Part shown: positions 8,374 through 35,296 of the stretch, one piece after another | How the letters are laid out: each line of letters opens with the position of its first letter | How positions within the stretch are numbered: the stretch's first letter is position 1 | IMG/VR virus record: IMGVR_UViG_3300012269_000002 | Location: 18,407 to 82,406 of that record | Length of the DNA: 64,000 nucleotides | Source: a virus | Lineage: Duplodnaviria; Heunggongvirae; Uroviricota; Caudoviricetes | Reading direction: 5' to 3' (one strand) | Notes under the pieces: generated by a model | Database searches by the model: none | Told to the model about the DNA's origin: nothing | What the model saw: only the letters and a program-made list of their open reading frames with translations | Made by a program: the position numbers and the translations under genes

Positions 8374-11300
8374 ATGTCAAATAGTATAAACACATTATCA
8401 CCAAATTTCAGGGATTTTCTACTTGGTAGAAACATCATTAGTGATACTATTAAAAACAATGGATTATTACCACTTTTACAAACGGTTGCCAAACCAGTTG
8501 AAATATCCCGTGCTCCAGAAAGTATTTTACCATCAACGGATATTGAAGTTAATGGTGAGTTTTATAAAGATTTAAATATAATTGAGAATAAATTCCAAGG
8601 TACTGATGAACAGTACAGGTCAATTGATATTATAAAAACAAAGGGTAGTACTAATGAGTTTAGTGTTCGTGACAACTCTAATTTTTACCAACAATTAAAT
8701 ACAACACAAAACACTTATAAAGCTGAGGACGCAAACTACGTTGATGCTTCAATATATTTAAATAGTTCAAGTGCACCAATAATGCAAATGGGTCCGTATT
8801 TAGATGAATTCGGTAATTTAAATGTTGGTGGACCTTCAACACAAGCTTTAGATATAATCGGAAGTGTTTTAGGTGGTAACGGTATTGGTTTTTCAAATAC
8901 TGGAATTGATACTGGGTTTGATGTTAGAAGTTCATTAGCTGGTCGAGTTCTATCGTCCGCTGGGGTTATAAACGATACCAAGTTAGGTCAACTAAGTGTT
9001 GGGTTCTTGGCTACATCATTAGGTAATAACGTTGCCTTTAATATCCAACAACAATCATTAGGTAAGATTAATTTAAACCCATTAAGTTTAATAAAGGGTG
9101 ATAGTGTAATTAGACCAAATTTCAATATAACGGTAGCCAAGGGTACGTTAGGTACGGCAGTTGATTTATTGGAAAGAATACTTGGTTTTGAAACACCAGT
9201 TAGCTTACTTTCAAGGTCTTCTTCAATATTTGCTAGCGAGAGTGGAAATATAAGTACAATCGATAGGGCAAACTCGGTAATCCAAAATACTGGTAAAGGG
9301 CAAATTTTAAGCTTATTCGCTAACTTAAACTCCAACAGTAATGAAAATTTAATAGGTGAGAGAATAGGGTATGTTCCAAATTATGAAGACTCTAGAACAG
9401 AAAGAGGGTTTAATCAAGGACCACTTAATGCTGGAGTTTCATATGCGTTCAATAACACGGGTGCTTTAGGTAAATATTCAAGTGTTCTGATTGGTGGGTT
9501 TAATGATGATTTCGATGAATTTAAAAATTTATTTTTAGATAATAAATTTACTTGGATTGGTACTGGTTCAAATTCATTAACGTATAGTAGTAGTAATTTT
9601 GGGGTTAGTGATGTTCCAGGGGTAATTCCTGATTTTTCAGTTAAAAAAGGTTTATTATTTAAAACACAGGAATTGTTCAAAAATAAAAACATGAGAACCC
9701 TTACGGTTGGACATGGGGTTAGTATCGATGGTTCAACACAAACACAATCAGCAATAAATGCTGGGTTTATGTCCAAGGGTAGTGGGGTTTTAAGTGAGTC
9801 CGCATTAAACGGTACAGCAGATGCTTTGGACCCTAGTAGTGTATTTTGTAGAACTTGGACAACATATGATAGATATTCACAAGTTGGAGACTTACAGAAG
9901 AGTAGTGGTTTAGATGCTTTTGCCAGAATCAATGGTGAAGAGTATAGTAATTCAGTTTTAGATGATAATGGTTTCGTTAGAATAGGACCTTACAAGGGTG
10001 AAGAAATAAAAAAATTCATGTTCTCGATTGAAAACTTAGCTTGGGTGGGGCAATTAGATAAATTATTGGAATCCGAAAAGGGTGAAGGAGATTTACTAAC
10101 AGGAAATAAAGGAAGAATTATGTGGTTTCCACCATATGATATTACATTCAATGAGACAACATCGGTTAACTGGGATAAAAATAATTTTATAGGTAGAGGT
10201 GAACCAATTTATACTTATAACAATACTGAAAGAACTGGCACACTTAGTTGGAAAATCGTTGTTGACCATCCAAACTACATGAACTTTATGGAAGATTTAA
10301 GTAGTGATGAGATTAATTCATTTTTCTCTGGTTGTCTTAAGTCTAAGGGTATTAGAAATAGAATTTTAACAAATGATGAACAAAATAATATTTCAGTTGC
10401 TGAAAACTTTTCACAACCAGAGATAGTAAATAGTGAGACAATCCCAACAACGGTATTCAAGGTATATTTCGCTAATGATAATACAGATATACCAGATTTA
10501 TATGAAAATGGTTTAAAAAATGGTGTTTCAAATGAAAAGATAGATTATAACGAAACCCCATCTGGAATTGTTTCCGAGGAATTTAATTACGGTGTCGGAA
10601 CTACTTTAGGTCAAGGCCCAGTGGGTAGTGTCGGTAGGGTTTATAATGATAATACAAATTTCGGTTTAAATGGGCAAACAACCCCAATTGATGTTGATGG
10701 TGATGTATTTGAAGGATGGCAAGACCCAAAATTTATAACAAAAATAAACTCTTTCTTAAAAGAAAAATGTAGATTTTGTAAAATTAATATTGTTGGTTAT
10801 GCCAGTACTCCTGGAACTGTTAATAATAATTTAATATTATCACAAAGGAGGGCATCTAATATAAATAATTGGTTATTAAATACTAGTGGTATTATTAGTC
10901 CAGATGATGAATTTAGGGAAAAAAGGATAAGTGTAGAGTTTAGAGGTGCTGGTGAAACCGAGGCTGGTGGTCCTGGATGTGTTTTTGGTAGTGAAGATAG
11001 TGAACCATGTAAGCGTTCCAGAGTTGCATCTATTGAAATAGAATATGACCCTACACTAAAGGAGATTATTGAACCAACCGTAACAACGGTGGATTCAAAT
11101 TCACCAACGAGAACAAGTTTAATACCTTTATCCAGATTTTATAATGAATCACATTATTTTGAAAAATTAGAACAAACCGATAACTTTATCTATGATAATA
11201 TAAAACAAAAAATTAAACATTTTCACCCTGGTTTCCATTCAATAACACCAGAAGGGTTTAACTCTAGGCTTACATTTTTACAACAATGTACTAGACAAGG

Positions 11301-18381: not shown

Positions 18382-18775
18382 AACAATTTTATTAGCATCC
18401 TTTATGGGTACTAAAGATATAGATATTTTTTTTAAAAAGCTTAAAGATAAATATAACATTCAGAAAACGAAAGTATTCGTATTTGAACATGTAGACGACC
18501 CCACTAAATTAATCGTAACATTTAAATTAGTAATTAAAAATAATATAAGGTTCAATATTAAGAAAGACCTACCAAACTCAATATTAATTCACAAAAGAGG
18601 TACGGCAATCTATACAATCAACGCCCTTAATAAATTAATAGAAAATACCCACCCAGAAACATTGGGAAACATTAATTATAGTTCGGTTAAAATAGATTGG
18701 TCCGAATTTCAAAATAAATTACTTACCTTTTATAATGATGAATTAAAGATATGTGATATAAAACGTATTTTTTAA
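18374..18775 (+). CDS. Hypothetical protein
   Basis: 133-aa ORF overlapping the upstream stop codon. Confidence 0.7.
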   Translation: MNRTILLASFMGTKDIDIFFKKLKDKYNIQKTKVFVFEHVDDPTKLIVTFKLVIKNNIRFNIKKDLPNSILIHKRGTAIYTINALNKLIENTHPETLGNINYSSVKIDWSEFQNKLLTFYNDELKICDIKRIF

Positions 18776-23841: not shown

Positions 23842-26286
23842 ATGAGTAAAATAGATAAAGATAAGTTAGGGTATTTAGGTATTGATTTCCAATATAGGTT
23901 ATTACAGCAAATTATAGTAGATAGAAAATTTGGTGAGTCGATTATAGATATAATGACACCAAATTACTTTGAAGATGCATTTTTAAGGAGTGTTGCTGGT
24001 AAAATAAAGGATAACTACGAAAAATACGAAACAATACCAGACATGAATAGTTTGGAATCTATATTATATGAAAATATAATTGATGAAGTTGACAAGGAAA
24101 TGTATATCAGTTCCCTTAAAAGAATCAAAGAGGCCGAACAGAACAATAGTCTTAGAACCCAAGACATTGCAATGAAATTTTGCAAACAACAAGAGTTAAA
24201 AAAATCTGTAAGAGAAATGCAGTTGATAATTGAAAAGGGTGACTTGGACGATTATCATTTATGTGAAGAACTTCTTAAGAAAGCCTTAGAGGTCGGACAT
24301 AGTAAAGATGATGGTATAGATGTATTCTATGATATCGAAAGTGTATTATCCGAAGATTTCAGGGACCCAATACCAACGGGTATCGATGGATTGGATACTT
24401 ACATGGATGGTGGATTGGCTAAAGGTGAATTAGCGGTGATTTTAGCCCCTACTGGGGTTGGTAAAGCTCAACCTCTTACATCTAAAATATTAACACCTAA
24501 CGGTTGGACAACTATGGGAAAAATACAAGTTAATGATTTTGTTATTGGTGATGATGGTAAAAAGACTAAAGTTATTGGTGTGTTTCCACAAGGTAAACGA
24601 CCTATATATGAAATTAAATTTAACGATGGTACATCTACATTATGTGATGAAGAACATTTATGGTCTGTAAATACAATAAACCAACGTAATCGTAAAACTA
24701 AAAAAAATGGTAAAGTAGTTTATCTACCAAGTGATGATAGTTTTAAAACGATTAAAACTAAAGACATGTTAGATGATATTAAAAAATGGGGTGGTAAAAA
24801 TAATTATAAAATACCCATAGTTAAACCAGTTCAATTTGAAAATAATACTAAATTACCTATCGACCCATATGTAATGGGATTAATATTAGGTGATGGATGC
24901 ATTACGGATTCAAATCAACCTAGAATAACAACTAAAGATGAATTTATTGTTAATGAAGTTAAGAGTAGGTATAATGATGTTAATATTTATTCTAGAGAAC
25001 GTTATATTGAAGAAAATAGTACCAATAAAATTATGTTAAATAAAAGGAGTATTCTTGAAATATCATTATTAGGTGCTAAATCTAAATTAAGTGATTTAAA
25101 ATTATATGGTTGTAATAGTGAATCTAAATTTATACCTAACTTATATTTGTTTAATACTATAGAAAATAGGTTATCTTTGTTACAAGGTTTAATTGATAGT
25201 GATGGTTACATTAATTCACATAGAATAGAATATGTGACTGTTTCAGAATCGCTATGTAATGGAATGATTGAGTTAATTCGTTCATTAGGTGGTAAAGTTA
25301 GTTTTAAAACGAAAATAGGTTCATATAAAAATAAATTAGGTGAAATTATTAACTGTAAAAAATATTATAGATTATCTATGAGTTTACCCAATAATGGTAT
25401 TATACCTTCCTTATTACCTCGTAAACGTAATAAATTTATAAATAGGGAAAAATATTCTAGTAATAAATTTATTACCTCAATTGAATATCACGGACATTTA
25501 GAGGCACAATGTATTATGGTAGATAATATTAATCATTTATATGTGACAGATGATTATATTGTAACTCATAATACCACATTGAGCACTAAGTTAGCAAACC
25601 ACGCTAAAAACATAGGTAAAAACGTTCTACAGATATTCTTTGAGGATAACCCAAAGATAATTCAGAAGAAACATTTAACATGTTGGATGGAAGGTAAATA
25701 CACATTAAACGAGCTAAGTGAAAATAAAGAAGAAATATTTGCTGTTGCCGAGGAAATGCAAAGTAGACCTGGAACTATTAGATTAAAAAAATTTCCTAGT
25801 GATAGTACTACAATTCCGATAATTAAACAGTATATTAAAAAATTGATGTCACAAGGATTTAAACCTGATTTAGTTATATTGGATTATATTGACTGTGTAC
25901 AATCAAGTAAACAATATAAGGAAAGTTGGGATGCGGAAGGTAATGTAATGCGACAATTTGAAACGATGTTATCAGAACTTGATATGGCTGGTTGGACCGC
26001 TGTTCAAGGTAACCGTTGTGTTTCTATTGATACTCATGTAGTTACTAAGAAAAATGGTAATATAAAAATAAAAGATATTGTTGAAGGTGATGAAATATTA
26101 ACACATAAAGGTTATAAGAAGGTAACACATGTATTTCCTATTGAAAAGCAACCGATATATAAAATAAAATTAAAATCTGGTAAAACTATAAATGTATCTA
26201 AAAAACATAAGTTTCCAACTAGTGATGGAAAACTTTTATCAATACAAGATGGTTTAAAAGTGGGTGATAAATTATTAACTAAATAA
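23842..26286 (+). CDS. dnaB: DnaB/gp41-like replicative helicase, N-terminal fragment (contains a cis intein and ends in a split-intein N-half)
   Basis: IPTGIDGLD...GGLAKGELAVILAPTGVGK Walker A interrupted by an intein; ILDYIDC Walker B; ends AVQGNR|CVSIDT...KLLTK*. Confidence 0.9.
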   Translation: MSKIDKDKLGYLGIDFQYRLLQQIIVDRKFGESIIDIMTPNYFEDAFLRSVAGKIKDNYEKYETIPDMNSLESILYENIIDEVDKEMYISSLKRIKEAEQNNSLRTQDIAMKFCKQQELKKSVREMQLIIEKGDLDDYHLCEELLKKALEVGHSKDDGIDVFYDIESVLSEDFRDPIPTGIDGLDTYMDGGLAKGELAVILAPTGVGKAQPLTSKILTPNGWTTMGKIQVNDFVIGDDGKKTKVIGVFPQGKRPIYEIKFNDGTSTLCDEEHLWSVNTINQRNRKTKKNGKVVYLPSDDSFKTIKTKDMLDDIKKWGGKNNYKIPIVKPVQFENNTKLPIDPYVMGLILGDGCITDSNQPRITTKDEFIVNEVKSRYNDVNIYSRERYIEENSTNKIMLNKRSILEISLLGAKSKLSDLKLYGCNSESKFIPNLYLFNTIENRLSLLQGLIDSDGYINSHRIEYVTVSESLCNGMIELIRSLGGKVSFKTKIGSYKNKLGEIINCKKYYRLSMSLPNNGIIPSLLPRKRNKFINREKYSSNKFITSIEYHGHLEAQCIMVDNINHLYVTDDYIVTHNTTLSTKLANHAKNIGKNVLQIFFEDNPKIIQKKHLTCWMEGKYTLNELSENKEEIFAVAEEMQSRPGTIRLKKFPSDSTTIPIIKQYIKKLMSQGFKPDLVILDYIDCVQSSKQYKESWDAEGNVMRQFETMLSELDMAGWTAVQGNRCVSIDTHVVTKKNGNIKIKDIVEGDEILTHKGYKKVTHVFPIEKQPIYKIKLKSGKTINVSKKHKFPTSDGKLLSIQDGLKVGDKLLTK
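24466..25572 (+). mobile_element. Cis intein (369 aa) in helicase Walker A; Ala1, class-3-type, with LAGLIDADG endonuclease
   Basis: GVGK|AQPL...DEEHLW...MGLILGDG...LLQGLIDSDG...AQCIMV...IVTHN|TT. Confidence 0.9.
26017..26283 (+). mobile_element. Split intein N-half (89 aa) of helicase
   Basis: C1 start CVSIDTHV, block B VSKKHKF, then a stop codon with no C-terminal block. Confidence 0.88.
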
Positions 26287-26333
26287 CTTTTTTGTACTGC
26301 GGTTAACTTTTTAATAAATTATAACTATTTATA

Positions 26334-27476
26334 ATGAAATATATTATGAAAAAGTTAACTGCAAAATATATTATTAATAGGAAAATGTTTAATAATATTG
26401 AAGAAAATACGATTACTGAAAGACATTTAAATGAAATTGATAAAATTTTAAAAAAATATGATAATAAAACTATAAAAAATAGGTTAAAAAATATTCATGA
26501 TTTTATAAAATATAATGTTGATGGGTGTTGGTTAGAAAGGATAAATATTATTAGAACTGTTTTAAAAAATGATGTAACATCTGATTATGCTTTAGAAATA
26601 AGATATGGAAAAAAAAATGTAGAAAAAAAGAAAAAAGATTTTTCAAGTAAATTTGGACATAGTTTAGAAAAATATAAAAAAAAATATGGTGAGTTGTTAG
26701 GTAAAATAAAATGGGAAGAATATTTAAAAAAATCAAAAACACCTTGGGGTTTAGATGCATGTATTGAAAAATTTGGTAAAATAAAAGGTCCTAAAAAATG
26801 GGATGAAAGACTAAGTAGAAAAAATAAAACTATGTCTGAGCGAAAATTAATAAAACCATATAGAAATGGTAGAACTTTAAAAGAATATCAAAATAGGTAT
26901 GGAATTGAAGAAGGTTTTATTAAATGGGATAAAAGAAATAAAAAACAAAGTTATAGATTTAGTAAAAAATATTATATAAATACTTTTGGTGAAAAGGTTG
27001 GTAATGAAAAATGGAATGAATATCGTAAAAGAATGAATTTAACTTCATTAGATAGTTTCATAAAACGTTACGGTAAAAAGAAAGGTATTGAAAAGTTTAA
27101 CACTTACATAAGTAAATGTTTTAAAAGTGGTTCTTTTTATAGTAAAATTTCACAAGAATTATTTTTTGAAATTTATAATAAATTAACTGAAAATATAAAA
27201 AAGGGTGTTAGATTTGCTAAATTGAATGGTGAGGAAGTATTTCACGTTAATCAAGATGATTTAAAAATAATAATGGTTGATTTTAAATGTGGTAATAGAA
27301 TAATAGAGTTTGATGGTGATTATTGGCATGATAATACTAAACAAAAAATAATTGATAAAAAACGAGATGAGTATTTAAAAAGTAAAGGTTATAATATTAT
27401 GAGAATATGGGAATCAGAGTATTTGAAAAATAAAAATAAAATAATAAATAAATGTTTAAAATTTATAAATGAATAG
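26334..27476 (+). CDS. Free-standing Vsr-like PD-(D/E)XK endonuclease inside the split intein
   Basis: Lys-rich K.YG...G..KW..Y repeats, then VDFKCGNRIIEFDGDYWH...DKKRDEYL...GYNIMRIWESEY. Its stop overlaps the start of the IntC gene. Confidence 0.8.
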   Translation: MKYIMKKLTAKYIINRKMFNNIEENTITERHLNEIDKILKKYDNKTIKNRLKNIHDFIKYNVDGCWLERINIIRTVLKNDVTSDYALEIRYGKKNVEKKKKDFSSKFGHSLEKYKKKYGELLGKIKWEEYLKKSKTPWGLDACIEKFGKIKGPKKWDERLSRKNKTMSERKLIKPYRNGRTLKEYQNRYGIEEGFIKWDKRNKKQSYRFSKKYYINTFGEKVGNEKWNEYRKRMNLTSLDSFIKRYGKKKGIEKFNTYISKCFKSGSFYSKISQELFFEIYNKLTENIKKGVRFAKLNGEEVFHVNQDDLKIIMVDFKCGNRIIEFDGDYWHDNTKQKIIDKKRDEYLKSKGYNIMRIWESEYLKNKNKIINKCLKFINE

Positions 27477-27957
27477 TGATATGAATAAATATGATATTAG
27501 TATGGATGATTTTTCATTAGATGAAATAGAATCCATAGAATTAATGGGCGAAGAAGATACAATAGATATAACAGTAGAAGATACACATATGTTTTATGCT
27601 AATGATATTTACACACATAATTCATCACTTACGGCAGAAACGGTCGATTCAAGTATGTTCGGGGGGTCTATTAAAAAAGCACAAATAGGTCACTTCATCA
27701 TTTCAATAGCAAAAACATTGGACCAAAAAGAACACGGAACCGCAAATATGGCGATACTTAAATCTAGATTTGGTCAAGACGGGATAATATTTGAGGATAT
27801 TATTTTCGATAATGGTAGAATACAGATAAGTATTAATAAGGGGCAAGAGGATGGTCATAGCTTTTTACAAAGTAAACAAAATAGAGCCGTAAAGGACCAG
27901 AATAGAGTTAGTAATATTATGGCCGCCATACAAGAGAGAAAAGAATTAGAAGGATAA
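27469..27957 (+). CDS. dnaB: Helicase C-terminal fragment preceded by split intein C-half (IntC 27469-27621, 51 aa)
   Basis: ...TIDITVEDTHMFYANDIYTHN|SSL...GGSIKKAQIGHFIISIAK...ILKSRFG (helicase motif H4). Confidence 0.9.
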   Translation: MNSDMNKYDISMDDFSLDEIESIELMGEEDTIDITVEDTHMFYANDIYTHNSSLTAETVDSSMFGGSIKKAQIGHFIISIAKTLDQKEHGTANMAILKSRFGQDGIIFEDIIFDNGRIQISINKGQEDGHSFLQSKQNRAVKDQNRVSNIMAAIQERKELEG

Positions 27958-27984: not shown

Positions 27985-28959
27985 ATGATTGAACCAATTT
28001 TACAAGAGAATAAGAACAGATTTGTTATATTTCCAATAGTGCACCAAGACATATGGGAATGGTACAAAAAAGCTGAATCAACTATTTGGACAGCAGAAGA
28101 AATAGATTTATCACAAGATTTGACCGACTGGGAAAAACTTAATGATAACGAACAATACTTTATTAAGAACGTATTAGCGTTTTTTGCCGCATCTGATGGT
28201 ATTGTTAATGAAAACCTTGCAGAAAACTTTGTTAGTGAAGTGCAATATGCCGAAGCTAAATTTTTCTACGGATTCCAAATAATGATGGAAAATATTCATT
28301 CAGAGACATACTCATTGTTAATTGATACGTATGTTAAAGATGAGGAAGAAAAAGATAGGTTATTTAGGGCTATCGAAACAGTCTCAGCTGTAAAGAAAAA
28401 AGCTGAGTGGGCATTAAAGTGGATTGATTCACCTAGTTTTGCTGAAAGATTAATTGCTTTCGCTGCGGTTGAAGGTATTTTCTTTTCAGGTTCGTTTTGT
28501 TCTATCTACTGGTTAAAGAGTAGAGGACTTATGCCTGGACTTAGTTTTTCAAATGAATTAATTTCAAGAGATGAAGGGTTACATTGTGATTTTGCGGTGC
28601 ATTTACACAATCACCACTTAGTTAATAAAGTTCCAAAGGAAAGAATTAGAGAAATTTTAGAGTCGGCCCTTGAAATTGAAAAAGAATTTATTTTAGAATC
28701 ATTACCAATTAGTTTAATAGGTATGAACTCTAAATTAATGTCTCAATACTTGGAGTATGTAACCGATACCTTGTTAGTGGATTTAGGTTGTGAAGCTATT
28801 TATAACGCTAAAAACCCATTTGATTTCATGGTTAATATCGCATTGGAAAATAAAACTAATTTCTTTGAAAAAAGAGTTAGTGAGTATTCAAAAAACGGTG
28901 TTGGAAAAAGTTCTGAAACAAATATCATGACTTTTGGTGAAGATGATGAAGATTTTTAA
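27985..28959 (+). CDS. nrdB: Ribonucleotide reductase class Ia beta subunit
   Basis: [39 protein letters not shown] di-iron motifs; uninterrupted. Confidence 0.97.
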
Positions 28960-28982: not shown

Positions 28983-31415
28983 ATGAAAGTAATAAAAAGA
29001 GATGGTTCATCGGAGCCAATTAAATTCGATAAGATATCGGCAAGAATTAAGAAACAAACTTACGGTTTGAATACGGATTATGTTGATTACATGGAAGTTA
29101 CTCAGAAAGTTATTGCTGGAATTTTTGATGGTATTACAACAAAAGAATTAGATAACCTAGCCGCAGAAATTGCGGCTTCGTTAACTAGGGTACATTATGA
29201 TTATTCTAAACTTGCCTCTAGGATTTCTATTTCTTCATTAAAGAAGTATACTAAAAAAAGTTTCACGGAAACCATTGAGGACCTTTACCATTATGTAAAC
29301 CCAATAACTGGCGAACAAGCTGGTCTTATTGCGGACAACGTATATAATATCGTTCGTGAAAACTCCAAAAAACTTGAACAAATGATTGTTCATGACAGAG
29401 ATTTCGACTATGACTTCTTCGGTTTTAAAACACTTGAAAGAGCATACTTATTAAAAATTAATAATGAAATAGCCGAAACTCCACAACATATGTGTTTAAG
29501 AGTTTCATTGGGGATTTGGGGAGATAACCTTAAAGAGGTTCAAAAGACATATGATTCCTTAAGTAAAGGTTTATTCACACACGCAACACCTACGCTTTTT
29601 AATTCTGGAACTAAAAAGCCACAGTTGTCAAGTTGTTTTGTTGCTGGTACAAGTGTATTTACAACAAGTGGTGTTAAAAATATTGAAGATGTTGAAATTG
29701 GTGATAAAGTAGTTACTCACAAGGGTAACGTTAAGGAGGTTCAACAACTACATAAAAATAAATTAAATGATAGACAATTGTATGACCTTAAAACTTATGG
29801 TAGTCCAAATATGACTGTAACTGGTAATCATAGAATTTTATCATTATCAAAAGAACAAGATAAGTGGGGTAAAACACCAAAATGGAACTCGGTTGAATAC
29901 CTAAGGGTCGGGGATTATGTGGCCATACCAAACAAAATTGGTAAATATGCACCAGAAAAGGTTGAATTAATAGATTATGTACCAAATAATTATGGTAATA
30001 TAGAATTAGAAAGTGAAATCATTGGAGATAAACTAAAAGTAAAATCAAAATGGTTGCGAAGACACAAATTAAATAATAATGGTGGTAATATTATAGTCAC
30101 TAGAAAACATAATGAGATAAATAAATCAATCATAATTGATGAAGATTTTGCATTTTTATTAGGTGTTTGGATTGGTGATGGAAATATATTAACTGGTAAA
30201 GATTATAGTAAAACTTTAACTGTTAATAGGGGTATTAGATTTACAAATAATAAGGATGCCTATGGTTTAATTGATAGGTTAGATAAATTAATAACTAAAA
30301 TATTCGGTATTGATGGTAATATTTCAAAACCAACAAAAACCAATACAATAACTATTGATGTACATTCACATGTTATATCTAATTATTTTTATAAAAACTT
30401 TGGTAAGGGTTTTAATGGTAAAAAAATACCCGATTTCATGTATAATTGGGATAAACTTATGATTTCAAAATTTTTAGAAGGTTTAATAACTTCTGATGGT
30501 TGTGTGACTAAAAGTGGTGATATTAGGATTACTATGGCAAATATTGACTTAATCAAATCAATATTTGCTTTATCCAGAAACTGTGGTATACCATTATCAT
30601 ACTCCGAGGCAACATCATTAAAATTAGGTGGGACTAAATTAACCGCTAGGATATCTTTACCTAAGGGTTCAATAGATTTATCCAATATCTATAAACTATA
30701 TAATGACGAAAGGTTAAGTGAGTATTTTAATAAGTCAAATAAAAATTCCAATATTAAAATAATAAATGGTACAACTTTTATTATAATAAATAAAAAAAGT
30801 GAAAATATTAGTAAACCAGAATTTGTATATACGCTAGGTGTTCAGGATGACCATTCATATGTTGTTGAAGGTAATGTAGTTGAAAATTGTTTCCTATTGG
30901 GTATGGCAGATGATTCAATCAAGGGCATATATGAGTCTTTAAGCGATTGTGCCGACATTTCTCAGTCCGCTGGTGGTATCGGTATCCACATTCATAATGT
31001 TCGTGCCAAGGGCACTTATATAAAGGGTACAAATGGAACCTCTAATGGTATTGTACCTATGTTGAGGGTTTATAATGAAACAGCTAGATATGTAGACCAA
31101 TGTTTTACCGAAGAAACATTAATCAATACCGATAAAGGGTTAATTAAAATTAAAGATATTTCTGAAGGGGATAAAGTTAAAACGTCAAATGGTTTTAATA
31201 AAGTTAAAAAAGTTAAAAAATTTAATAAAGAAAAAAGAGAATTAATAAACGTTAATGGTAAAACTAAATCAACAGTAAGTCACCCTTATTTAGTAGTTGA
31301 AGATTCAACTGGTAGAGATTTAGAAATCATTAAATTATCAATTAAATCTGGAACATTAATACCTAAATGGGTTGAAGCTAAAGATTTAAATAAAAATATG
31401 TTTATATTAAAATAA
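28983..31415 (+). CDS. nrdA: Ribonucleotide reductase alpha subunit, fragment 1 (ATP-cone; contains a cis intein; ends in split-intein N-half)
   Basis: MKVIKRDG ATP-cone, ATPTLFNSGT..PQLSS|C, SAGGIG, TARYVDQ|CFTEET...*. Confidence 0.93.
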   Translation: MKVIKRDGSSEPIKFDKISARIKKQTYGLNTDYVDYMEVTQKVIAGIFDGITTKELDNLAAEIAASLTRVHYDYSKLASRISISSLKKYTKKSFTETIEDLYHYVNPITGEQAGLIADNVYNIVRENSKKLEQMIVHDRDFDYDFFGFKTLERAYLLKINNEIAETPQHMCLRVSLGIWGDNLKEVQKTYDSLSKGLFTHATPTLFNSGTKKPQLSSCFVAGTSVFTTSGVKNIEDVEIGDKVVTHKGNVKEVQQLHKNKLNDRQLYDLKTYGSPNMTVTGNHRILSLSKEQDKWGKTPKWNSVEYLRVGDYVAIPNKIGKYAPEKVELIDYVPNNYGNIELESEIIGDKLKVKSKWLRRHKLNNNGGNIIVTRKHNEINKSIIIDEDFAFLLGVWIGDGNILTGKDYSKTLTVNRGIRFTNNKDAYGLIDRLDKLITKIFGIDGNISKPTKTNTITIDVHSHVISNYFYKNFGKGFNGKKIPDFMYNWDKLMISKFLEGLITSDGCVTKSGDIRITMANIDLIKSIFALSRNCGIPLSYSEATSLKLGGTKLTARISLPKGSIDLSNIYKLYNDERLSEYFNKSNKNSNIKIINGTTFIIINKKSENISKPEFVYTLGVQDDHSYVVEGNVVENCFLLGMADDSIKGIYESLSDCADISQSAGGIGIHIHNVRAKGTYIKGTNGTSNGIVPMLRVYNETARYVDQCFTEETLINTDKGLIKIKDISEGDKVKTSNGFNKVKKVKKFNKEKRELINVNGKTKSTVSHPYLVVEDSTGRDLEIIKLSIKSGTLIPKWVEAKDLNKNMFILK
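29634..30887 (+). mobile_element. Cis intein (418 aa) with LAGLIDADG endonuclease; +1 residue is the Cys225-equivalent; penultimate Glu
   Basis: QLSS|CFVAGT...VTGNH...FLLGVWIGDG...FLEGLITSDG...YTLGVQDDHSYVVEGNVVEN|CFLL. Confidence 0.9.
31101..31412 (+). mobile_element. Split intein N-half (104 aa), nrdA split A
   Basis: CFTEETLINTDKGLIKIKDISEGDKV...STVSHPYL...WVEAKDL...*; strongly basic. Confidence 0.88.
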
Positions 31416-31456
31416 TAAACATGTAAGAACATGAATTTAATAAAATAAAATAAAAA

Positions 31457-31636
31457 ATGGCATACAAAGATAGTATTGAAAATTTTAATGAGCTAGGTTA
31501 TGACTTAGATAACATTAAATTAGAAAAAGTTAAATCAATAAGTACTTCAATAGAAGATTGTGAAGTATATGATTTAGAAATTGATGAGTTTCATAATTAT
31601 GAAACAGAAATGGGATTAGTTCATAATGGTGGTGGT
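31457..31636 (+). CDS. nrdA: nrdA fragment 2, exon 1: split intein C-half (57 aa, 31457-31627) + GGG
   Basis: ...EVYDLEIDEFHNYETEMGLVHN|GGG. This frame differs from that of fragment 1, 41 nt upstream. Confidence 0.85.
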
Positions 31637-31940
31637 AAACTTTTGCCTTCACGTTAAAAAAATTCAGTTAATTGCTGGAACTCCCTTAGAGTTTATAATA
31701 CTACAACGCAGATGGTAACGTCAAACGTGAATGTTTGAAAAATTATAAAATTGGGAAATCAGCAGCCAAGGTTCTTAGAAATAAGAATAAGGTTCAACGA
31801 CTAGGTTATGGAGTCTTAATATTAAGTTAAAGATAGTAAAAACCCACGAAAGCTGGACAATGTTAATTCATTGAAGATATAGTCTAGACTTATTAGAAAT
31901 AATAAGAGGTTGAGATAAAGAACTCAACGTTAATACAACG
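31637..31940 (+). ncRNA. Group I intron (304 nt, no ORF) in nrdA
   Basis: P AATTGCTGGAA 31670-80, Q AATCAGCAG 31757-65, R GTTCAACGACTA 31792-803, S AAGATATAGTCT 31874-85. P7 GACTA/TAGTC; P1 with U36.G45 wobble; terminal G. Splicing restores GGG-KRKGS. Confidence 0.93.
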
Positions 31941-32681
31941 AAAAGAAAGGGTAGTATTGCCGTATATTTAGAGCCATGGCATGCGGATGTACAGGATTTC
32001 ATTCAATTAAGAAAGAATCACGGAAAGGAAGAAATGAGAGCTAGAGATTTATTCTTAGCCTTATGGACCCCAGATTTATTTATGCAGAGGGTTGAATCCG
32101 ATGGTGATTGGACTTTAATGTGTCCACATGATTGTCCAGGTTTATCCGATGTTTATGATACTAAGGATAGTAAGGCTTTTACTGAATTATATGAAAGTTA
32201 TGAGGCTTCTGGTAAAGGAAAGAAAACCTTAAAAGCTAGAGAATTATATGCTGAAATTCTTGAGAGTCAAATTGAAACTGGGACACCTTACATATTATTC
32301 AAGGATGCTGCCAATAGTAAATCAAACCAACAAAATATAGGTACAATTAAGTCTTCAAACTTATGTCTAGTTGGTGAAACTAATATTAAAATTAGATTAA
32401 ATGGTATTGAGGGTGAAATAAGAATGGATTTATTAAATGAGTTATTTAAAACTAATGAAAATTTAGAGGTTTTAAGTCATAATATTAGAACAAAAGTTAA
32501 TGAGTGGAAATTAGTCACAAATTCAGCAATGACTAACCCTAAAACTAATGTTTTAAAAATAACTGACGAAAAAACTGGTAAATCAATTAAATGTACGCCA
32601 GAGCACGAAGTCTTTACTGAGAATAGAGGTTATATTATGGCTAAAGATTTAAAATCTGATGATGTTTTAGTAATTAATTAA
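31941..32681 (+). CDS. nrdA: nrdA fragment 2, exon 2 (ORF track starts it wrongly at 32034); ends in split-intein N-half
   Basis: [17 protein letters not shown]...[14 protein letters not shown]...IKSSNL|CLVGET...*. Confidence 0.9.
32364..32678 (+). mobile_element. Split intein N-half (105 aa), nrdA split B
   Basis: CLVGETNI...[22 protein letters not shown]. Confidence 0.9.
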
Positions 32682-32728
32682 AAATATTTTAGTAACTTCC
32701 ATAATTATAAGATATTTATTATTAAATT

Positions 32729-33493
32729 ATGGAAGTTATGAAAAATAATAAATATTATGTGTATGGTTATTTCGACCCTAGAAAAGGGGGTGAATATAAA
32801 TTTGGTAAATATGTGTTTGAATTTGAGCCAATATATATTGGTAAAGGTAAATGTGGTTCTAAACGAATGGAAAGGCATTTATTATTCATAAAAGATAGGA
32901 ATATTGATTTAACGAATAATAAATATAAATTAAACTTATTTAATCAGATAATGAGTGATGGTCTTGAACCCATTTTTTTTAAAATAGAAGATAAATTAAA
33001 TGAAGACATCGCTTATAGTATTGAAACGCTTTTAATTGATTTAATTGGATTTAGACACAATAATACTGGAACATTAACCAATATAAGTGTTGGTGGATTT
33101 GGTGGTGATATGTTTACAAATAACCCTAATAAAGAATATATTAGGTCATTAAGGGTTAAACAAATGAGTGGTGAAGGTAACCATAGGTTTGGTATTAAAT
33201 TAGAGGATACCCCATCACATAAAATGAGGGGTGAAAATCATTGGAATACTGGTCGAGAAATTTCAAGCTCAACTAGAAAATTGATGTCAAAAAATAATAG
33301 CGGTAAGAATAACCCCAATGCCACTAAAGTGTGTAAGTATGATTTGGATGGTAAATATATTTGTACATATAATACGATGAAAGAGGCATGTGTTGAAAAT
33401 AATGTTAATAAGGGTTGTTTGATTAGGGCGTGTAAATCAAATTTAAAATACACTGCTAAAGGTTTTAAGTGGGGTTATAATAATAATAATTAA
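32729..33493 (+). CDS. Free-standing GIY-YIG-like endonuclease (NUMOD3/NUMOD1-type repeats) inside split intein B
   Basis: YYVYGYFDPR...PIYIGKG...R...H, E..LI..IG...G.LTN; RKLMSKNNSGKNNP; KVCKYDLDGKYICTY. Confidence 0.8.
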   Translation: MEVMKNNKYYVYGYFDPRKGGEYKFGKYVFEFEPIYIGKGKCGSKRMERHLLFIKDRNIDLTNNKYKLNLFNQIMSDGLEPIFFKIEDKLNEDIAYSIETLLIDLIGFRHNNTGTLTNISVGGFGGDMFTNNPNKEYIRSLRVKQMSGEGNHRFGIKLEDTPSHKMRGENHWNTGREISSSTRKLMSKNNSGKNNPNATKVCKYDLDGKYICTYNTMKEACVENNVNKGCLIRACKSNLKYTAKGFKWGYNNNN

Positions 33494-33527
33494 ATCAATT
33501 AGTATATATAAAAATATAAAAAATAAA

Positions 33528-34796
33528 ATGATAAAAATAGAAGAATTAGAAGAGGAAGTTTCAGTTTATGATATCACTGTAGATGGTAATCATAATTTCT
33601 ACGCTAACGACATTTTAGTACATAATTGTACTGAAATAATGGAGGTTAGTACACCTGATGAAACAGCCGTATGTAACTTAGCTAGTGTCGCACTACCAAA
33701 GTTCGTTGAAATCCCAAGTGGTAAAGTTAAATCTAAAGATAAGGAATTAAGAACATTCGACCATGATGGGCTATATGATATAGCATATCAGATTACGGTT
33801 AACTTAAATCAAGTTATCGATATTAACTGGTATCCAACAGAAAAGGCTAAAAAGTCTAATTTTAGACATAGACCAATTGGTATCGGTGTTCAAGGTTTAG
33901 CTGATACATTTGCCATGTTAGGTTTACCGTTTGAATCAGATGAGGCTCAAAAATTAAATAAAGAAATTTTTGAAACGATTTATTTTGCATCTATGACAGC
34001 ATCTATGGATTTGGCTAAAATAAGTGGTTCTTATGAAACATTTGAAGGTTCACCAGTATCTAAGGGTATCTTCCAATTCGACATGTGGGAAATGGAAGAA
34101 GGTGAATTATCTGGAAGATGGGACTGGATTAAGTTGAAAAAAGCGGTAATTAAAAATGGTGTTAGAAATTCATTATTATTAGCACCGATGCCAACAGCAT
34201 CAACAGCTCAAATATTAGGTAATAATGAATGTTTTGAACCATATACCACCAACATATATAAGCGTAATGTTTTAGCTGGTGAATATATCATAGTGAATAA
34301 ACATTTAATAAGTGATTTAATCGACTTAGGGTTATGGGATGATAAACTTAGAATTGATTTAATCAAGAGTAATGGTTCTATTCAGAGTATTGATAGAATA
34401 CCACAGAACGTTAAAGATATTTATAGAACTGTTTGGGAAATGAAATCCTCAACACTACTTAAAATGTCAAGGGATAGAGGTTTATTCATTTGTCAATCTC
34501 AATCAATGAATTTATTCATAAGGGATGCAAATACGGCTAAATTATCAAAAGCTTTGATGTATGGTTGGAAATTGGGTCTTAAGACTGGTATGTATTACCT
34601 AAGAAGTAATTCTAGCGTTTCGGCCAAACAAAGTTTAGGTGCCGAAGTTCAACAAAGAGTAATCGAAGAGGTAAAACAAGAAGTGCCCGAAACTAAGTTA
34701 GTTGCACCCATTGTAAGCTCGATAGCCGAAGAAGAAGCACTTAAGGGTGTTACTTGTAGTTTGGATGACCCCGATTGTGAGGCATGTGGTAGTTAA
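33528..34796 (+). CDS. nrdA: nrdA fragment 3: split intein C-half (33 aa, to 33626) + C-terminal catalytic region
   Basis: MIKIEELEEEVSVYDITVDGNHNFYANDILVHN|CTEI..TAVCNLAS..RPIGIGVQG..APMPTAST..GLKTGMYY..CEACGS. Confidence 0.93.
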   Translation: MIKIEELEEEVSVYDITVDGNHNFYANDILVHNCTEIMEVSTPDETAVCNLASVALPKFVEIPSGKVKSKDKELRTFDHDGLYDIAYQITVNLNQVIDINWYPTEKAKKSNFRHRPIGIGVQGLADTFAMLGLPFESDEAQKLNKEIFETIYFASMTASMDLAKISGSYETFEGSPVSKGIFQFDMWEMEEGELSGRWDWIKLKKAVIKNGVRNSLLLAPMPTASTAQILGNNECFEPYTTNIYKRNVLAGEYIIVNKHLISDLIDLGLWDDKLRIDLIKSNGSIQSIDRIPQNVKDIYRTVWEMKSSTLLKMSRDRGLFICQSQSMNLFIRDANTAKLSKALMYGWKLGLKTGMYYLRSNSSVSAKQSLGAEVQQRVIEEVKQEVPETKLVAPIVSSIAEEEALKGVTCSLDDPDCEACGS

Positions 34797-34817: not shown

Positions 34818-34849
34818 AAAGGTCTTTCAGCGATGTTAGACCTTTTTTT
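34818..34849 (+). terminator. Intrinsic terminator after nrdA
   Basis: AAAGGTCT / AGACCTTT stem plus T7. Confidence 0.65.
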
Positions 34850-34906
34850 ATTTTACCATTTATTTTTTAAAAAATTTTATTATAATATTTATGATAAAAT
34901 AGTATT

Positions 34907-35296
34907 ATGGCTGGTAATGGAGTTTTCATAAATATAGGCTTTCCCTTTAGTGAAAGTAATAGAGGGTTTTTCTTAAAATTAAATAATGATGATAAGGGTG
35001 CCATCAAATCTGATTTAATGCATTTAATACTCACCAGAAAGGGTGAGAGGTTGTATATGCCAGAATTTGGTACAAACCTATTGAAATATATTTTTGAACC
35101 AAATGATAACGTAACCCAAGAGGATATTAAAAGGGAAATAAACCTTACAGTTAAAAAATATCTACCAAATCTACAAATAAACGGGGTTATCGTTAACGAG
35201 AATGAGGCAACACCATATGGTGTAACAGTTAGAATAGATTATACCGTAACAGATGACGTATTCCAAGAAACAGACTTCGTTATAATTGAATTATAA
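34907..35296 (+). CDS. Baseplate wedge protein (gp25/gpW-like)
   Basis: IKSDL..LILTRKGERLYMPEFGTNL..YIFEP signature. Confidence 0.9.
   Translation: MAGNGVFINIGFPFSESNRGFFLKLNNDDKGAIKSDLMHLILTRKGERLYMPEFGTNLLKYIFEPNDNVTQEDIKREINLTVKKYLPNLQINGVIVNENEATPYGVTVRIDYTVTDDVFQETDFVIIEL

Follow-up and report, generated by a model that had tools for sequence, protein, structure and literature searches.

The large-subunit ribonucleotide reductase (RNR) gene nrdA of an uncultured lake phage encodes three separately translated proteins, F1, F2 and F3, as established by open reading frame (ORF) and frame analysis of the window, the whole 64,000-nt stretch of DNA analyzed here (positions 18,407 to 82,406 of IMG/VR record IMGVR_UViG_3300012269_000002). 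Four elements intervene in the gene: a group I intron, a LAGLIDADG cis intein, and two split inteins, A and B. A preliminary description of this DNA had reported three translation products interrupted by this set of elements, and our analysis confirmed both the element set and the coordinates of F1, the F2 exons and F3, with ORFs and frames in agreement. One feature absent from that description is a GIY-YIG gene at 32729-33493, which separates the two parts of intein B. The features are listed below, with slashes marking intein junctions.

27985..28959, plus strand: nrdB, RNR small subunit, intact and directly 5′ of nrdA (Pfam Ribonuc_red_sm, E = 9.5e-110, full profile)
28983..31415, plus strand: nrdA F1, 810 aa, comprising ATP-cone, all-alpha domain, barrel start, cis intein and IntN-A
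29634..30887, plus strand: cis intein of 418 aa that includes a LAGLIDADG endonuclease domain and is bounded by QLSS/CFVAG and VVEN/CFLL (Pfam Hint, Hint_2, LAGLIDADG_3, Hom_end)
31101..31412, plus strand: IntN-A, 104 aa, net charge +8, starting YVDQ/CFTEET, TxxH present (gp41-1 profile match)
31413..31456, plus strand: F1 stop codon and 41-nt AT-rich spacer, no endonuclease gene
31457..31636 and 31941..32681, plus strand: F2, exons 1 and 2, across the 304-nt group I intron
31457..31636, plus strand: F2 exon 1, IntC-A (57 aa, net charge -11, end GLVHN), then Gly-Gly-Gly
31637..31940, plus strand: group I intron, 304 nt, no ORF; 5′ splice site after the U of GGT, last base G
31941..32681, plus strand: F2 exon 2, extein KRKGS...SSNL (141 aa), then IntN-B
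32364..32678, plus strand: IntN-B, 105 aa, starting CLVGETN (match to NrdJ-1 intein)
32729..33493, plus strand: GIY-YIG homing endonuclease gene, free-standing, separating IntN-B from IntC-B (Pfam LEM-3_GIY-YIG, NUMOD3; PHROG 314)
33528..34796, plus strand: nrdA F3, 422 aa, IntC-B (33 aa) followed by a 389-aa C-extein from CTEI, with the thiyl Cys at +1
33528..33626, plus strand: IntC-B, 33 aa, ending ILVHN
34818..34856, plus strand: hairpin and T-run just 3′ of F3, a possible operon terminator (read from the sequence, unlisted by the terminator scan)

F1 runs from extein residues 1-217 through the cis intein and a further 71 aa of extein into IntN-A. Its frame differs from that of F2, and the GIY-YIG gene shares the frame of F2. 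The pieces are presumably co-transcribed; a sigma-70 promoter scan returned 55 sites against 54 expected, no excess, and a search for the Bacteroidota-type motif TTG-N-TAnnTTTG revealed no full promoter within the operon.

Joining the exteins yields a protein of 821 aa that aligns with the NrdA of Tenacibaculum phage pT24 and Larrie with 0 gaps at any junction. This comparison with intact NrdA, which the preliminary description had put forward as a check, showed the exteins to be colinear and restored the joints it had given: QLSS-CFLL, YVDQ-GGG-KRKGS and SSNL-CTEI. The class Ia NrdA domains PF03477, PF00317 and PF02867 follow in order with full profile coverage (Pfam), and the barrel profile is distributed over the pieces (positions 2-72 in F1, 75-212 in exon 2 and 204-523 in F3). 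The alignment placed all key NrdA motifs in the joined product (CFLL, SSNLCTEI, AVCNLAS, GMYYLR with its YY pair, and the C-terminal Cys pair C..C-GS), which cover the catalytic Cys pair and the thiyl Cys with its Asn and Glu, and the exteins are free of any internal frameshift or stop. The nearest RNR relatives are those of phages of Flavobacteriia; a megablast search against deposited phages gave only a 91-nt match.

The stop codons at 31413 and 32679, which the preliminary description had flagged as potential assembly errors, are both reproduced exactly in contigs from other lake samples. The comparison used Logan contigs rather than raw reads, from runs not flagged as a possible source of the record: those of lake run X4 showed 0 differences over 29592-31951 and 32218-34128, and that of lake run X5 showed 0 differences over 29679-31974. 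We found no point in support of a truly continuous nrdA in which both stops are assembly or sequencing errors. These identical contigs, relatives in other samples that stop at the same places, the differing frames of F1 and F2, and the endonuclease gene separating the halves of intein B leave that reading with practically no credence.

Comparison with a near-identical relative from run X7 revealed that 30 of the 34 changed codons in nrdA are synonymous, a pattern that points to purifying selection on the gene. A multi-intein nrdA in Campylobacter phages has been suggested to be a pseudogene (Dwivedi 2013, PMC3653736), and the nrdA studied here could likewise be decaying under an overload of selfish elements while the phage uses the host RNR or another of its own. 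The IMG/VR record is only ~46% complete, so a second RNR may lie elsewhere in the genome. Decay is nevertheless very improbable in view of the synonymous changes, the full set of intact catalytic motifs, the intact nrdB, the uninterrupted exteins, and the persistence of three- and four-piece designs among diverged phages, whose contigs reach 566 kb.

The cis intein is similar to PI-SceI (E = 7e-8) and carries the canonical class 1 residues, namely Cys1 (CFVAG), TGNH, a terminal Asn and a +1 Cys. Site mapping placed this +1 Cys at C218 of yeast/human R1, which we take to be C225 of E. coli R1. The earlier assignment of C225 and C439 to intein +1 positions was thereby borne out for the cis intein and intein B. 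In the relative from run X7, exactly the 1254 nt of the cis intein are absent, and F1 of the related contig L092 also lacks it. A search of IMG/VR with an exact 28-mer spanning the C225 junction without intein gave no match, and the intein-less allele was recovered via protein clusters instead. The penultimate residue of the cis intein is Glu, replacing the usual His, which counts against the maturation proposed below.

Intein B, distributed over two polypeptides, displays the canonical class 1 split-intein residues (CLVGETN, TPEH and ILVHN/C), and its N-terminal half matches the NrdJ-1 intein (PDB 8ubs; E = 5e-14). Its +1 residue maps to C439 of E. coli R1, the thiyl Cys. The GIY-YIG gene has homologues with 46-51% identity at the same place in L083, L085 and L091. 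An endonuclease gene between intein halves makes this a fractured gene in the sense of Dassa 2009 (PMC2677866), where split inteins with free-standing endonuclease genes were described for NrdA-1 to NrdA-7, NrdJ-1/2, gp41-1 and others. Intein B also fits these loci in coming from a phage, in residing in NrdA and in being inserted immediately before the thiyl Cys. However, each published locus is described with one split intein and two pieces, whereas the window holds two split inteins and three pieces, and intein A departs further in having a 41-nt spacer without an endonuclease gene and no +1 nucleophile.

The group I intron scored 71.5 bits against Rfam RF00028 in a local scan (cut-off 50). 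The absence of a match in the whole-window Rfam scan (fast filters, gathering threshold) was a filter miss, as it was for L083 and L090. By alignment, L083, L090 and L091 each carry a homologous intron at this site (89.7 bits with Rfam for that of L091), and the consensus fold comprises 68 pairs, 31 of them with compensatory change. The splice boundaries are GGT/AAA...ACG/AAA, with the P1 U-G pair at alignment columns 9 and 25; an alternative boundary was rejected because the GGT/...G/AAR boundaries are shared by four contigs. The intron and the intein A junction are only 9 nt apart. Removal of the intron restores the frame GGG-KRKGS, and unspliced RNA would read IntC-A followed by GGGKLLPSR. 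No RNA runs holding this stretch were listed.

Middle pieces with two different intein halves occur in at least 60 protein clusters, at least 19 of them intron-less and about 41 of the intron type. At the level of whole loci, three pieces plus an intron, as in the window, are found in L091 and L092 (the latter with an F3 identical to that of the window at 421 of 422 positions), three pieces without an intron in L085-L087, and four pieces in L083/L084 and L090. Judged from these sequences, the three-piece design is common in giant phages and not unique to the window. The preliminary description had known of no precedent. For the literature this was borne out, as our search yielded engineered systems and general fragmentation reports but no paper in which two split inteins share one natural gene; the sequence data, in contrast, repeat or even exceed the design.

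Related arrangements are known from both engineered and natural systems. Engineered tandem trans-splicing (PMC7090010, PMC7210297) employs an IntC-X/cargo/IntN-Y middle piece ligated on both sides; those constructs are man-made, whereas the piece in the window is natural and under selection. RNR genes with both introns and inteins (2003, cited in PMC2874743) likewise gather these elements at conserved sites, but their inteins are described as splicing in cis within one polypeptide, whereas the window's gene gives three translation products. In another published phage nrdA, three inteins are annotated and an ORF splits one of them. Its single split leaves it with two pieces, its first intein is found a few residues past site A in the downstream direction and has Ser at +1, and it has no intron.

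Specificity loop 2 of RNR carries signals between the effector and substrate sites, and intein A is inserted in this loop at Q288/G289 (yeast numbering). The IntN-A family profile matches the gp41-1 intein (E = 1.2e-7), and the columns C1, T58 and H61 of IntN-A and H56 and N57 of IntC-A are invariant among relatives at 36-48% identity. Docking of IntN-A with IntC-A scored 0.86 against 0.00 for the best control, a pass that may reflect likeness to solved split inteins; 58 of 80 solved complexes attained the docking mark, as did 2 of 110 mismatched pairs, and the runs agreed in at least 94% of contacts, with partner pLDDT of at least 77. In this model, the two halves rebuild a Hint fold. Although the spacer of intein A in the window is devoid of an endonuclease gene, an endonuclease-like ORF of 299-311 aa lies between the halves in the near-identical L092 and in L085 and L091.

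The +1 residue of intein A is Gly (HN/GGG) in all relatives aligned, in place of the canonical Cys, Ser or Thr. Shifting the boundaries to gain a nucleophile was rejected, since the uninterrupted motif QGG(G)KRKGS offers none. Among the best 150 library representatives, 40 matched stretches carry HN/GG(G)[KR][RK].G, and at least 9 of these 40 lie uninterrupted within full-length NrdA as inteins of 154-429 aa. This contiguity implies that the element must be dealt with post-translationally. For Gly at +1, too, the literature search turned up engineered systems and general fragmentation reports, with no paper describing such an intein.

A-type bacterial intein-like (BIL) domains offer a chemical parallel: like intein A, they pair Cys1 with a C-terminal His-Asn and lack a nucleophile at +1, and some ligation without a nucleophilic side chain has been attributed to them (Amitai 2003, Dassa 2004, Aranko 2013, PDB 2lwy, as summarized in PMC7765530 and PMC7664689). 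BIL domains, however, reside in variable regions of non-conserved bacterial proteins, whereas intein A is split, accompanied by endonuclease genes in relatives, and always located at the same Q/G site of an essential enzyme. A BIL domain was the top hit of IntN-A in a single-sequence PDB search (E = 0.009), but a specific BIL kinship was rejected, the family profile being equally close to the gp41-1 intein.

Because Gly occupies the +1 position of intein A, canonical trans-splicing cannot join F1 to F2. The earlier proposal that all three fragments are joined remains likely for junction B, where the configuration is canonical, and fails in its canonical transesterification form at junction A. 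There the ends may be ligated by direct aminolysis or left as a permanent nick. Tentatively, we regard as plausible that intein A represents a large, hitherto undescribed class of true inteins at the Gln/Gly of loop 2, both contiguous and split and homing with endonucleases, that ligate without a +1 nucleophile, the Gly amine attacking the Cys1 thioester.

It is also possible, if somewhat doubtful, that junction A is never ligated, with intein A docking F1 to F2 and then cutting itself off at both ends. The enzyme would then consist of chains 1-288 and 289-821 (F2 + F3), nicked in loop 2 and held by an interlocked barrel as in Aeromonas phage Aeh1, whose nrdA-a/mobE/nrdA-b locus exemplifies genes in pieces and whose split NrdA works without the peptide bond (Crona 2010, PMC3045599). 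In both cases a homing endonuclease gene interrupts the phage NrdA, which is reassembled post-translationally, and this makes Aeh1 a possible model for an unligated junction A; Aeh1, however, has short non-intein tails and no splicing, whereas the window encodes complete Hint halves with conserved catalytic residues. The invariance of Gly at +1, the conservation of the residues required for both cleavages, and the predominantly cleaved products of HINT domains lacking a +1 nucleophile (PMC7664689) favor a nick, and a single 821-aa chain may never form. Conversely, new charged ends would be costly in a loop that transmits specificity signals, yet the element is widespread, and limited ligation in the absence of a side-chain nucleophile is known for BIL domains (Dassa 2004, Aranko 2013, as outlined in PMC7765530 and PMC7664689).

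The missing +1 nucleophile and the strongly opposite charges of the halves (+8 versus -11) might alternatively indicate a chemically dead intein A that acts as a permanent non-covalent clamp, its Hint domain remaining on the mature enzyme. This is unlikely: members sharing only 36-48% identity all retain Cys1, the Thr and His of block B and the terminal His-Asn, which would be unexpected for mere docking, and contiguous forms of up to 429 aa would have to stay within loop 2.

In view of the observed anatomy, extein colinearity, reproducible stops, recurrence in other contigs and purifying selection, the locus is probably a working, multiply fractured class Ia nrdA of a large phage, matured by RNA and protein splicing. 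Successive invasions by homing elements would have left four intervening elements, each at a catalytically or allosterically critical site. The LAGLIDADG intein would be removed from F1 in cis at the C218/C225 site, and synthesis of full F2 would require prior removal of the 304-nt group I intron from the mRNA. F2 and F3 would be joined through canonical trans-splicing by intein B, the NrdJ-1 relative with the thiyl Cys at +1, and F1 and F2 would be brought together within specificity loop 2 by split intein A. For junction A we lean toward thioester formation and Asn cyclization, after which the freed Gly amine would attack directly (aminolysis, a route reported for BIL domains). Of the ordered four-step maturation originally envisaged, only the precedence of the intron step over full F2 is retained; the cis splicing and the two trans reactions could proceed in any sequence.

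Each of these elements is of a known kind; what is new is that one essential enzyme is routinely assembled in nature from three or four polypeptides through different split inteins acting in parallel, a point on which our literature search found no paper. Such loci would provide ready-made, co-evolved and presumably non-cross-reacting split-intein pairs for multi-fragment ligation, and the presence/absence variants among near-identical phages offer a natural record of stepwise gene fracture by homing elements. Should the Gly+1 family truly ligate, the textbook rule that the +1 residue must be Cys, Ser or Thr would not be universal, and this phage would stitch one enzyme together with two different ligation chemistries plus RNA splicing. 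If it does not, these phages would run an RNR with a cut in its dNTP-specificity loop.

Class Ia NrdA is spread over three same-strand ORFs downstream of nrdB (ORF map, Pfam), here called F1, F2 and F3, with F2 consisting of two exons around a group I intron. F1 contains a cis intein, split intein A lies between F1 and F2 (halves IntN-A and IntC-A), and split intein B lies between F2 and F3 (IntN-B and IntC-B).

Layout of the nrdB-nrdA region in window coordinates, read from the ORF map and Pfam, with exact boundaries computed
27985-28959: nrdB
28983-31415: F1, 810 aa; ATP-cone, all-alpha domain and barrel-profile positions 2-72
within F1: cis intein, 418 aa, inserted after QLSS; Hint and LAGLIDADG matches
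C-terminal end of F1: IntN-A, a 104-aa Hint N-half beginning directly after YVDQ
between F1 and F2: AT-rich spacer of 41 nt
31457-31657: F2 exon 1 ORF, 66 codons; 57-aa Hint C-half (IntC-A) ending GLVHN, then GGG and an early stop
from 31941: F2 exon 2, reading KRKGS... to SSNL; barrel positions 75-212
after SSNL: IntN-B, a 105-aa Hint N-half with its stop at 32679
32729-33493: GIY-YIG/NUMOD3 endonuclease gene
33528-34796: F3; 33-aa Hint C-half (IntC-B) ending ILVHN, then CTEI..., barrel positions 204-523 and a C-terminal Cys pair

The five extein segments join into a product of 821 aa, which over its whole length matches the intact NrdA of Tenacibaculum phages pT24 and Larrie and is gap-free at all junctions. 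The ORF map, Pfam and Rfam confirm the preliminary description of three nrdA polypeptides with one group I intron, one cis intein and two split inteins.

Two stops, at 31413 and 32679, had been raised as possible assembly errors. We searched Logan contigs (contigs, not raw reads) from lake-water runs not flagged as possible source of the record. Contigs of run X4 cover 29592-31951 and 32218-34128, and a contig of run X5 covers 29679-31974; neither differs anywhere from the window, so both stops are reproduced. In a relative from the salt-lake run X7, 95-99% identical, 34 extein codons are changed, 30 of them synonymously. A single nrdA was found in the 161-kb record, which is about 46% complete (CheckV). 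The pieces are probably co-transcribed, given their tight spacing and the single hairpin and T-run after F3. This hairpin (AAAGGTCT...AGACCTTT, 34818-34856) lies directly 3′ of F3, before a gp25-like baseplate gene at 34907; unlisted by the terminator scan, it is the sole terminator-like signal seen from nrdB to the end of nrdA.

A local Rfam scan of the stretch between GGT (31636) and AAA (31941) identified a group I intron, scoring 71.5 bits (gathering score 50), with U ending the 5′ exon and G ending the intron. Homologous, ORF-less introns of 292-303 nt occupy the identical codon boundary in three contigs of related phages (L083, L090 and L091, the last scoring 89.7 bits). The four copies share 69-84% pairwise identity, and their consensus fold has 68 pairs, 31 of which keep pairing through two-sided changes. 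The intron has as much support as sequence alone can give. A whole-window Rfam scan with fast filters did not detect the intron despite its local score, and long-stretch scans with default filters miss the AT-rich element in the window (31637-31940), L083 and L090 alike; bulk-scan intron counts for such phages will be underestimates.

Mapping the segments onto solved R1 structures located the insertion sites. The 71-aa segment downstream of the cis intein corresponds to yeast and human residues 218-288, and F2 exon 2 to human 292-428 and E. coli 298-437. This places the cis intein at C218 (yeast/human numbering), the counterpart of E. coli C225, and intein A between Q288 and G289, inside specificity loop 2. 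Intein B is inserted directly N-terminal to the thiyl Cys, C439 in E. coli, which is the published insertion point in fractured NrdA loci (PMC2677866). It retains all canonical features (Cys1, TPEH, His-Asn and Cys+1), and IntN-B has the solved NrdJ-1 split intein as a match (E 5e-14); canonical trans-splicing is the straightforward reading of F2-F3 joining.

It is at intein A that the earlier account is weakest: its observation holds and its interpretation is partly supported. Gly at +1, the first residue after the intein, bars textbook joining of F1 and F2. Since the uninterrupted site reads QGG(G)KR.G, no boundary shift supplies a Cys, Ser or Thr at +1, and intein A is predicted to be unable to use step 2 of the textbook splicing mechanism. 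Cys1, the block B Thr and His and the terminal His-Asn are nevertheless invariant among relatives at only 36-48% identity. An IntC-A profile searched against 1.84 billion representative proteins gave 607 matches at E <= 0.001. Among the best 150 of these proteins, 40 matched stretches carry HN/GG(G)[KR][RK].G (slashes mark intein boundaries), of which at least nine are contiguous inteins of 154-429 aa in full-length NrdA, of the form YVDQ/C...HN/GGG; all nine representatives looked up were metagenomic. Because the Gly+1 type is common in a critical loop, it must be handled post-translationally. Separately, 18 matched stretches apparently have Lys after His-Asn and could represent BIL-like or toxin Hint domains.

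Mostly cleavage is reported for HINT domains that lack a +1 nucleophile (PMC7664689), and ligation by BIL domains without nucleophilic side chains has been reported (Dassa 2004 and Aranko 2013, cited in PMC7765530 and PMC7664689). With step 2 barred, these reports led us to consider three outcomes. Aminolysis-type ligation by intein A is our tentative choice, at somewhat less than an even chance. Double cleavage, leaving a nicked enzyme, is in line with the cleavage prevailing among such HINT domains and is nearly as likely; a role for intein A as a pure clamp is very unlikely. Docking of IntN-A with IntC-A gave a model score of 0.86 (best control 0.00), with at least 94% contact agreement between runs and partner pLDDT of at least 77; 58 of 80 solved complexes attain this mark versus 2 of 110 mismatched pairs, although, because split inteins have solved structures, the pass may only mirror likeness to them. 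We did not adopt a classification of intein A as a BIL domain, as by profile IntN-A resembles the gp41-1 intein (E 1.2e-7) just as much as it does a BIL domain (E 5.7e-7). This non-canonical junction, above the element count, is the most interesting part of the locus.

An ordered four-step maturation had also been proposed. The count of four maturation events is accurate, but the sole forced order is that intron removal precedes translation of full F2; the cis intein of F1 and both split inteins could in principle react independently of one another.

Precedents exist for fractured genes that combine a single split intein with an endonuclease gene (PMC2677866) and for split NrdA assembled non-covalently (PMC3045599), and introns, inteins and endonucleases are reported to fragment the genes of huge phages in general (PMC12880540). 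The nrdA of Campylobacter phage IBB_35 has three annotated inteins, only one of them split: a mini-intein that follows GRGG and has Ser+1, lying a few residues past the intein A site; a split intein, its halves flanking an ORF, one residue past the thiyl Cys; and a third mini-intein at PPAGN/C...SHN/S. Our literature search, from which subscription journals were mostly absent and which leaves absence unproven, found no paper on a gene that naturally carries two split inteins, nor one on an intein with Gly at +1.

Elsewhere in this phage, the upstream replicative helicase (26017-27957) is also fractured: an IntN of 89 aa and charge +10 at GNR/C is followed by a nuclease gene and an IntC ending THN/S (51 aa, charge -14). 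Since 16 of 28 aligned residues are common to this IntC and IntC-B, cross-reaction is a fair question. The full record outside the window holds three further Intein_splicing matches (141386-141870, 87014-87505 and 8968-9063); the first comprises different open frames at 141386-141637 and 141772-141870, which look like the halves of a further split intein that has no endonuclease gene.

The claim that the design lacks a described precedent holds for the literature searched but not for sequences, as it recurs in related phages.

Organization of nrdA in contigs of related phages
L085, L086, L087: contigs up to 58.6 kb; three pieces without intron, each of the two split inteins with an endonuclease-like ORF
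L091: 394 kb; three pieces and the intron
L083, L084: 252 kb; four pieces, third split intein at PTAS/T
L090: 566 kb; four pieces, third split intein at PTAS/T
L092: 102.6 kb (JGI contig); layout as in the window

The third split intein (L083:7639-10961, L090:5782-7736) lies at MPTAS/T, its IntN beginning C... and its IntC ending SHN/T; a 498-aa homing-endonuclease gene separates the halves in L083, and a 107-nt spacer alone in L090. A protein search with exon 2 and IntN-B, in which the best 120 clusters were read, returned 19 clusters of about 307-320 aa with IntC-A, HN/GGG[KR]RKGS, extein and SSNL/IntN-B, and about 41 of about 243-253 aa beginning M-KRKGS; in L083, the one start read as DNA, this M comes from the intron's final ATG.

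L092 is almost identical to the window's phage, with 99.8% nucleotide identity from nrdB to extein 1, 421 of 422 identical F3 residues, and the intron, intein B and GIY-YIG gene in common. It has no cis intein, corresponding to the exact 1254-nt skip of run X7, and its intein A is a diverged allele whose halves are separated by a 302-aa DUF723/Vsr-like gene; the window's intein A lacks an endonuclease gene. Within L092:3302-5610, identity falls to 90% only in the extein adjoining intein A; this resembles a tract co-converted during homing.

The locus is neither artefact nor pseudogene, but real, under selection and recurrent. The differences between L092 and the window show a stable three-piece nrdA frame in which single selfish elements are gained and lost.
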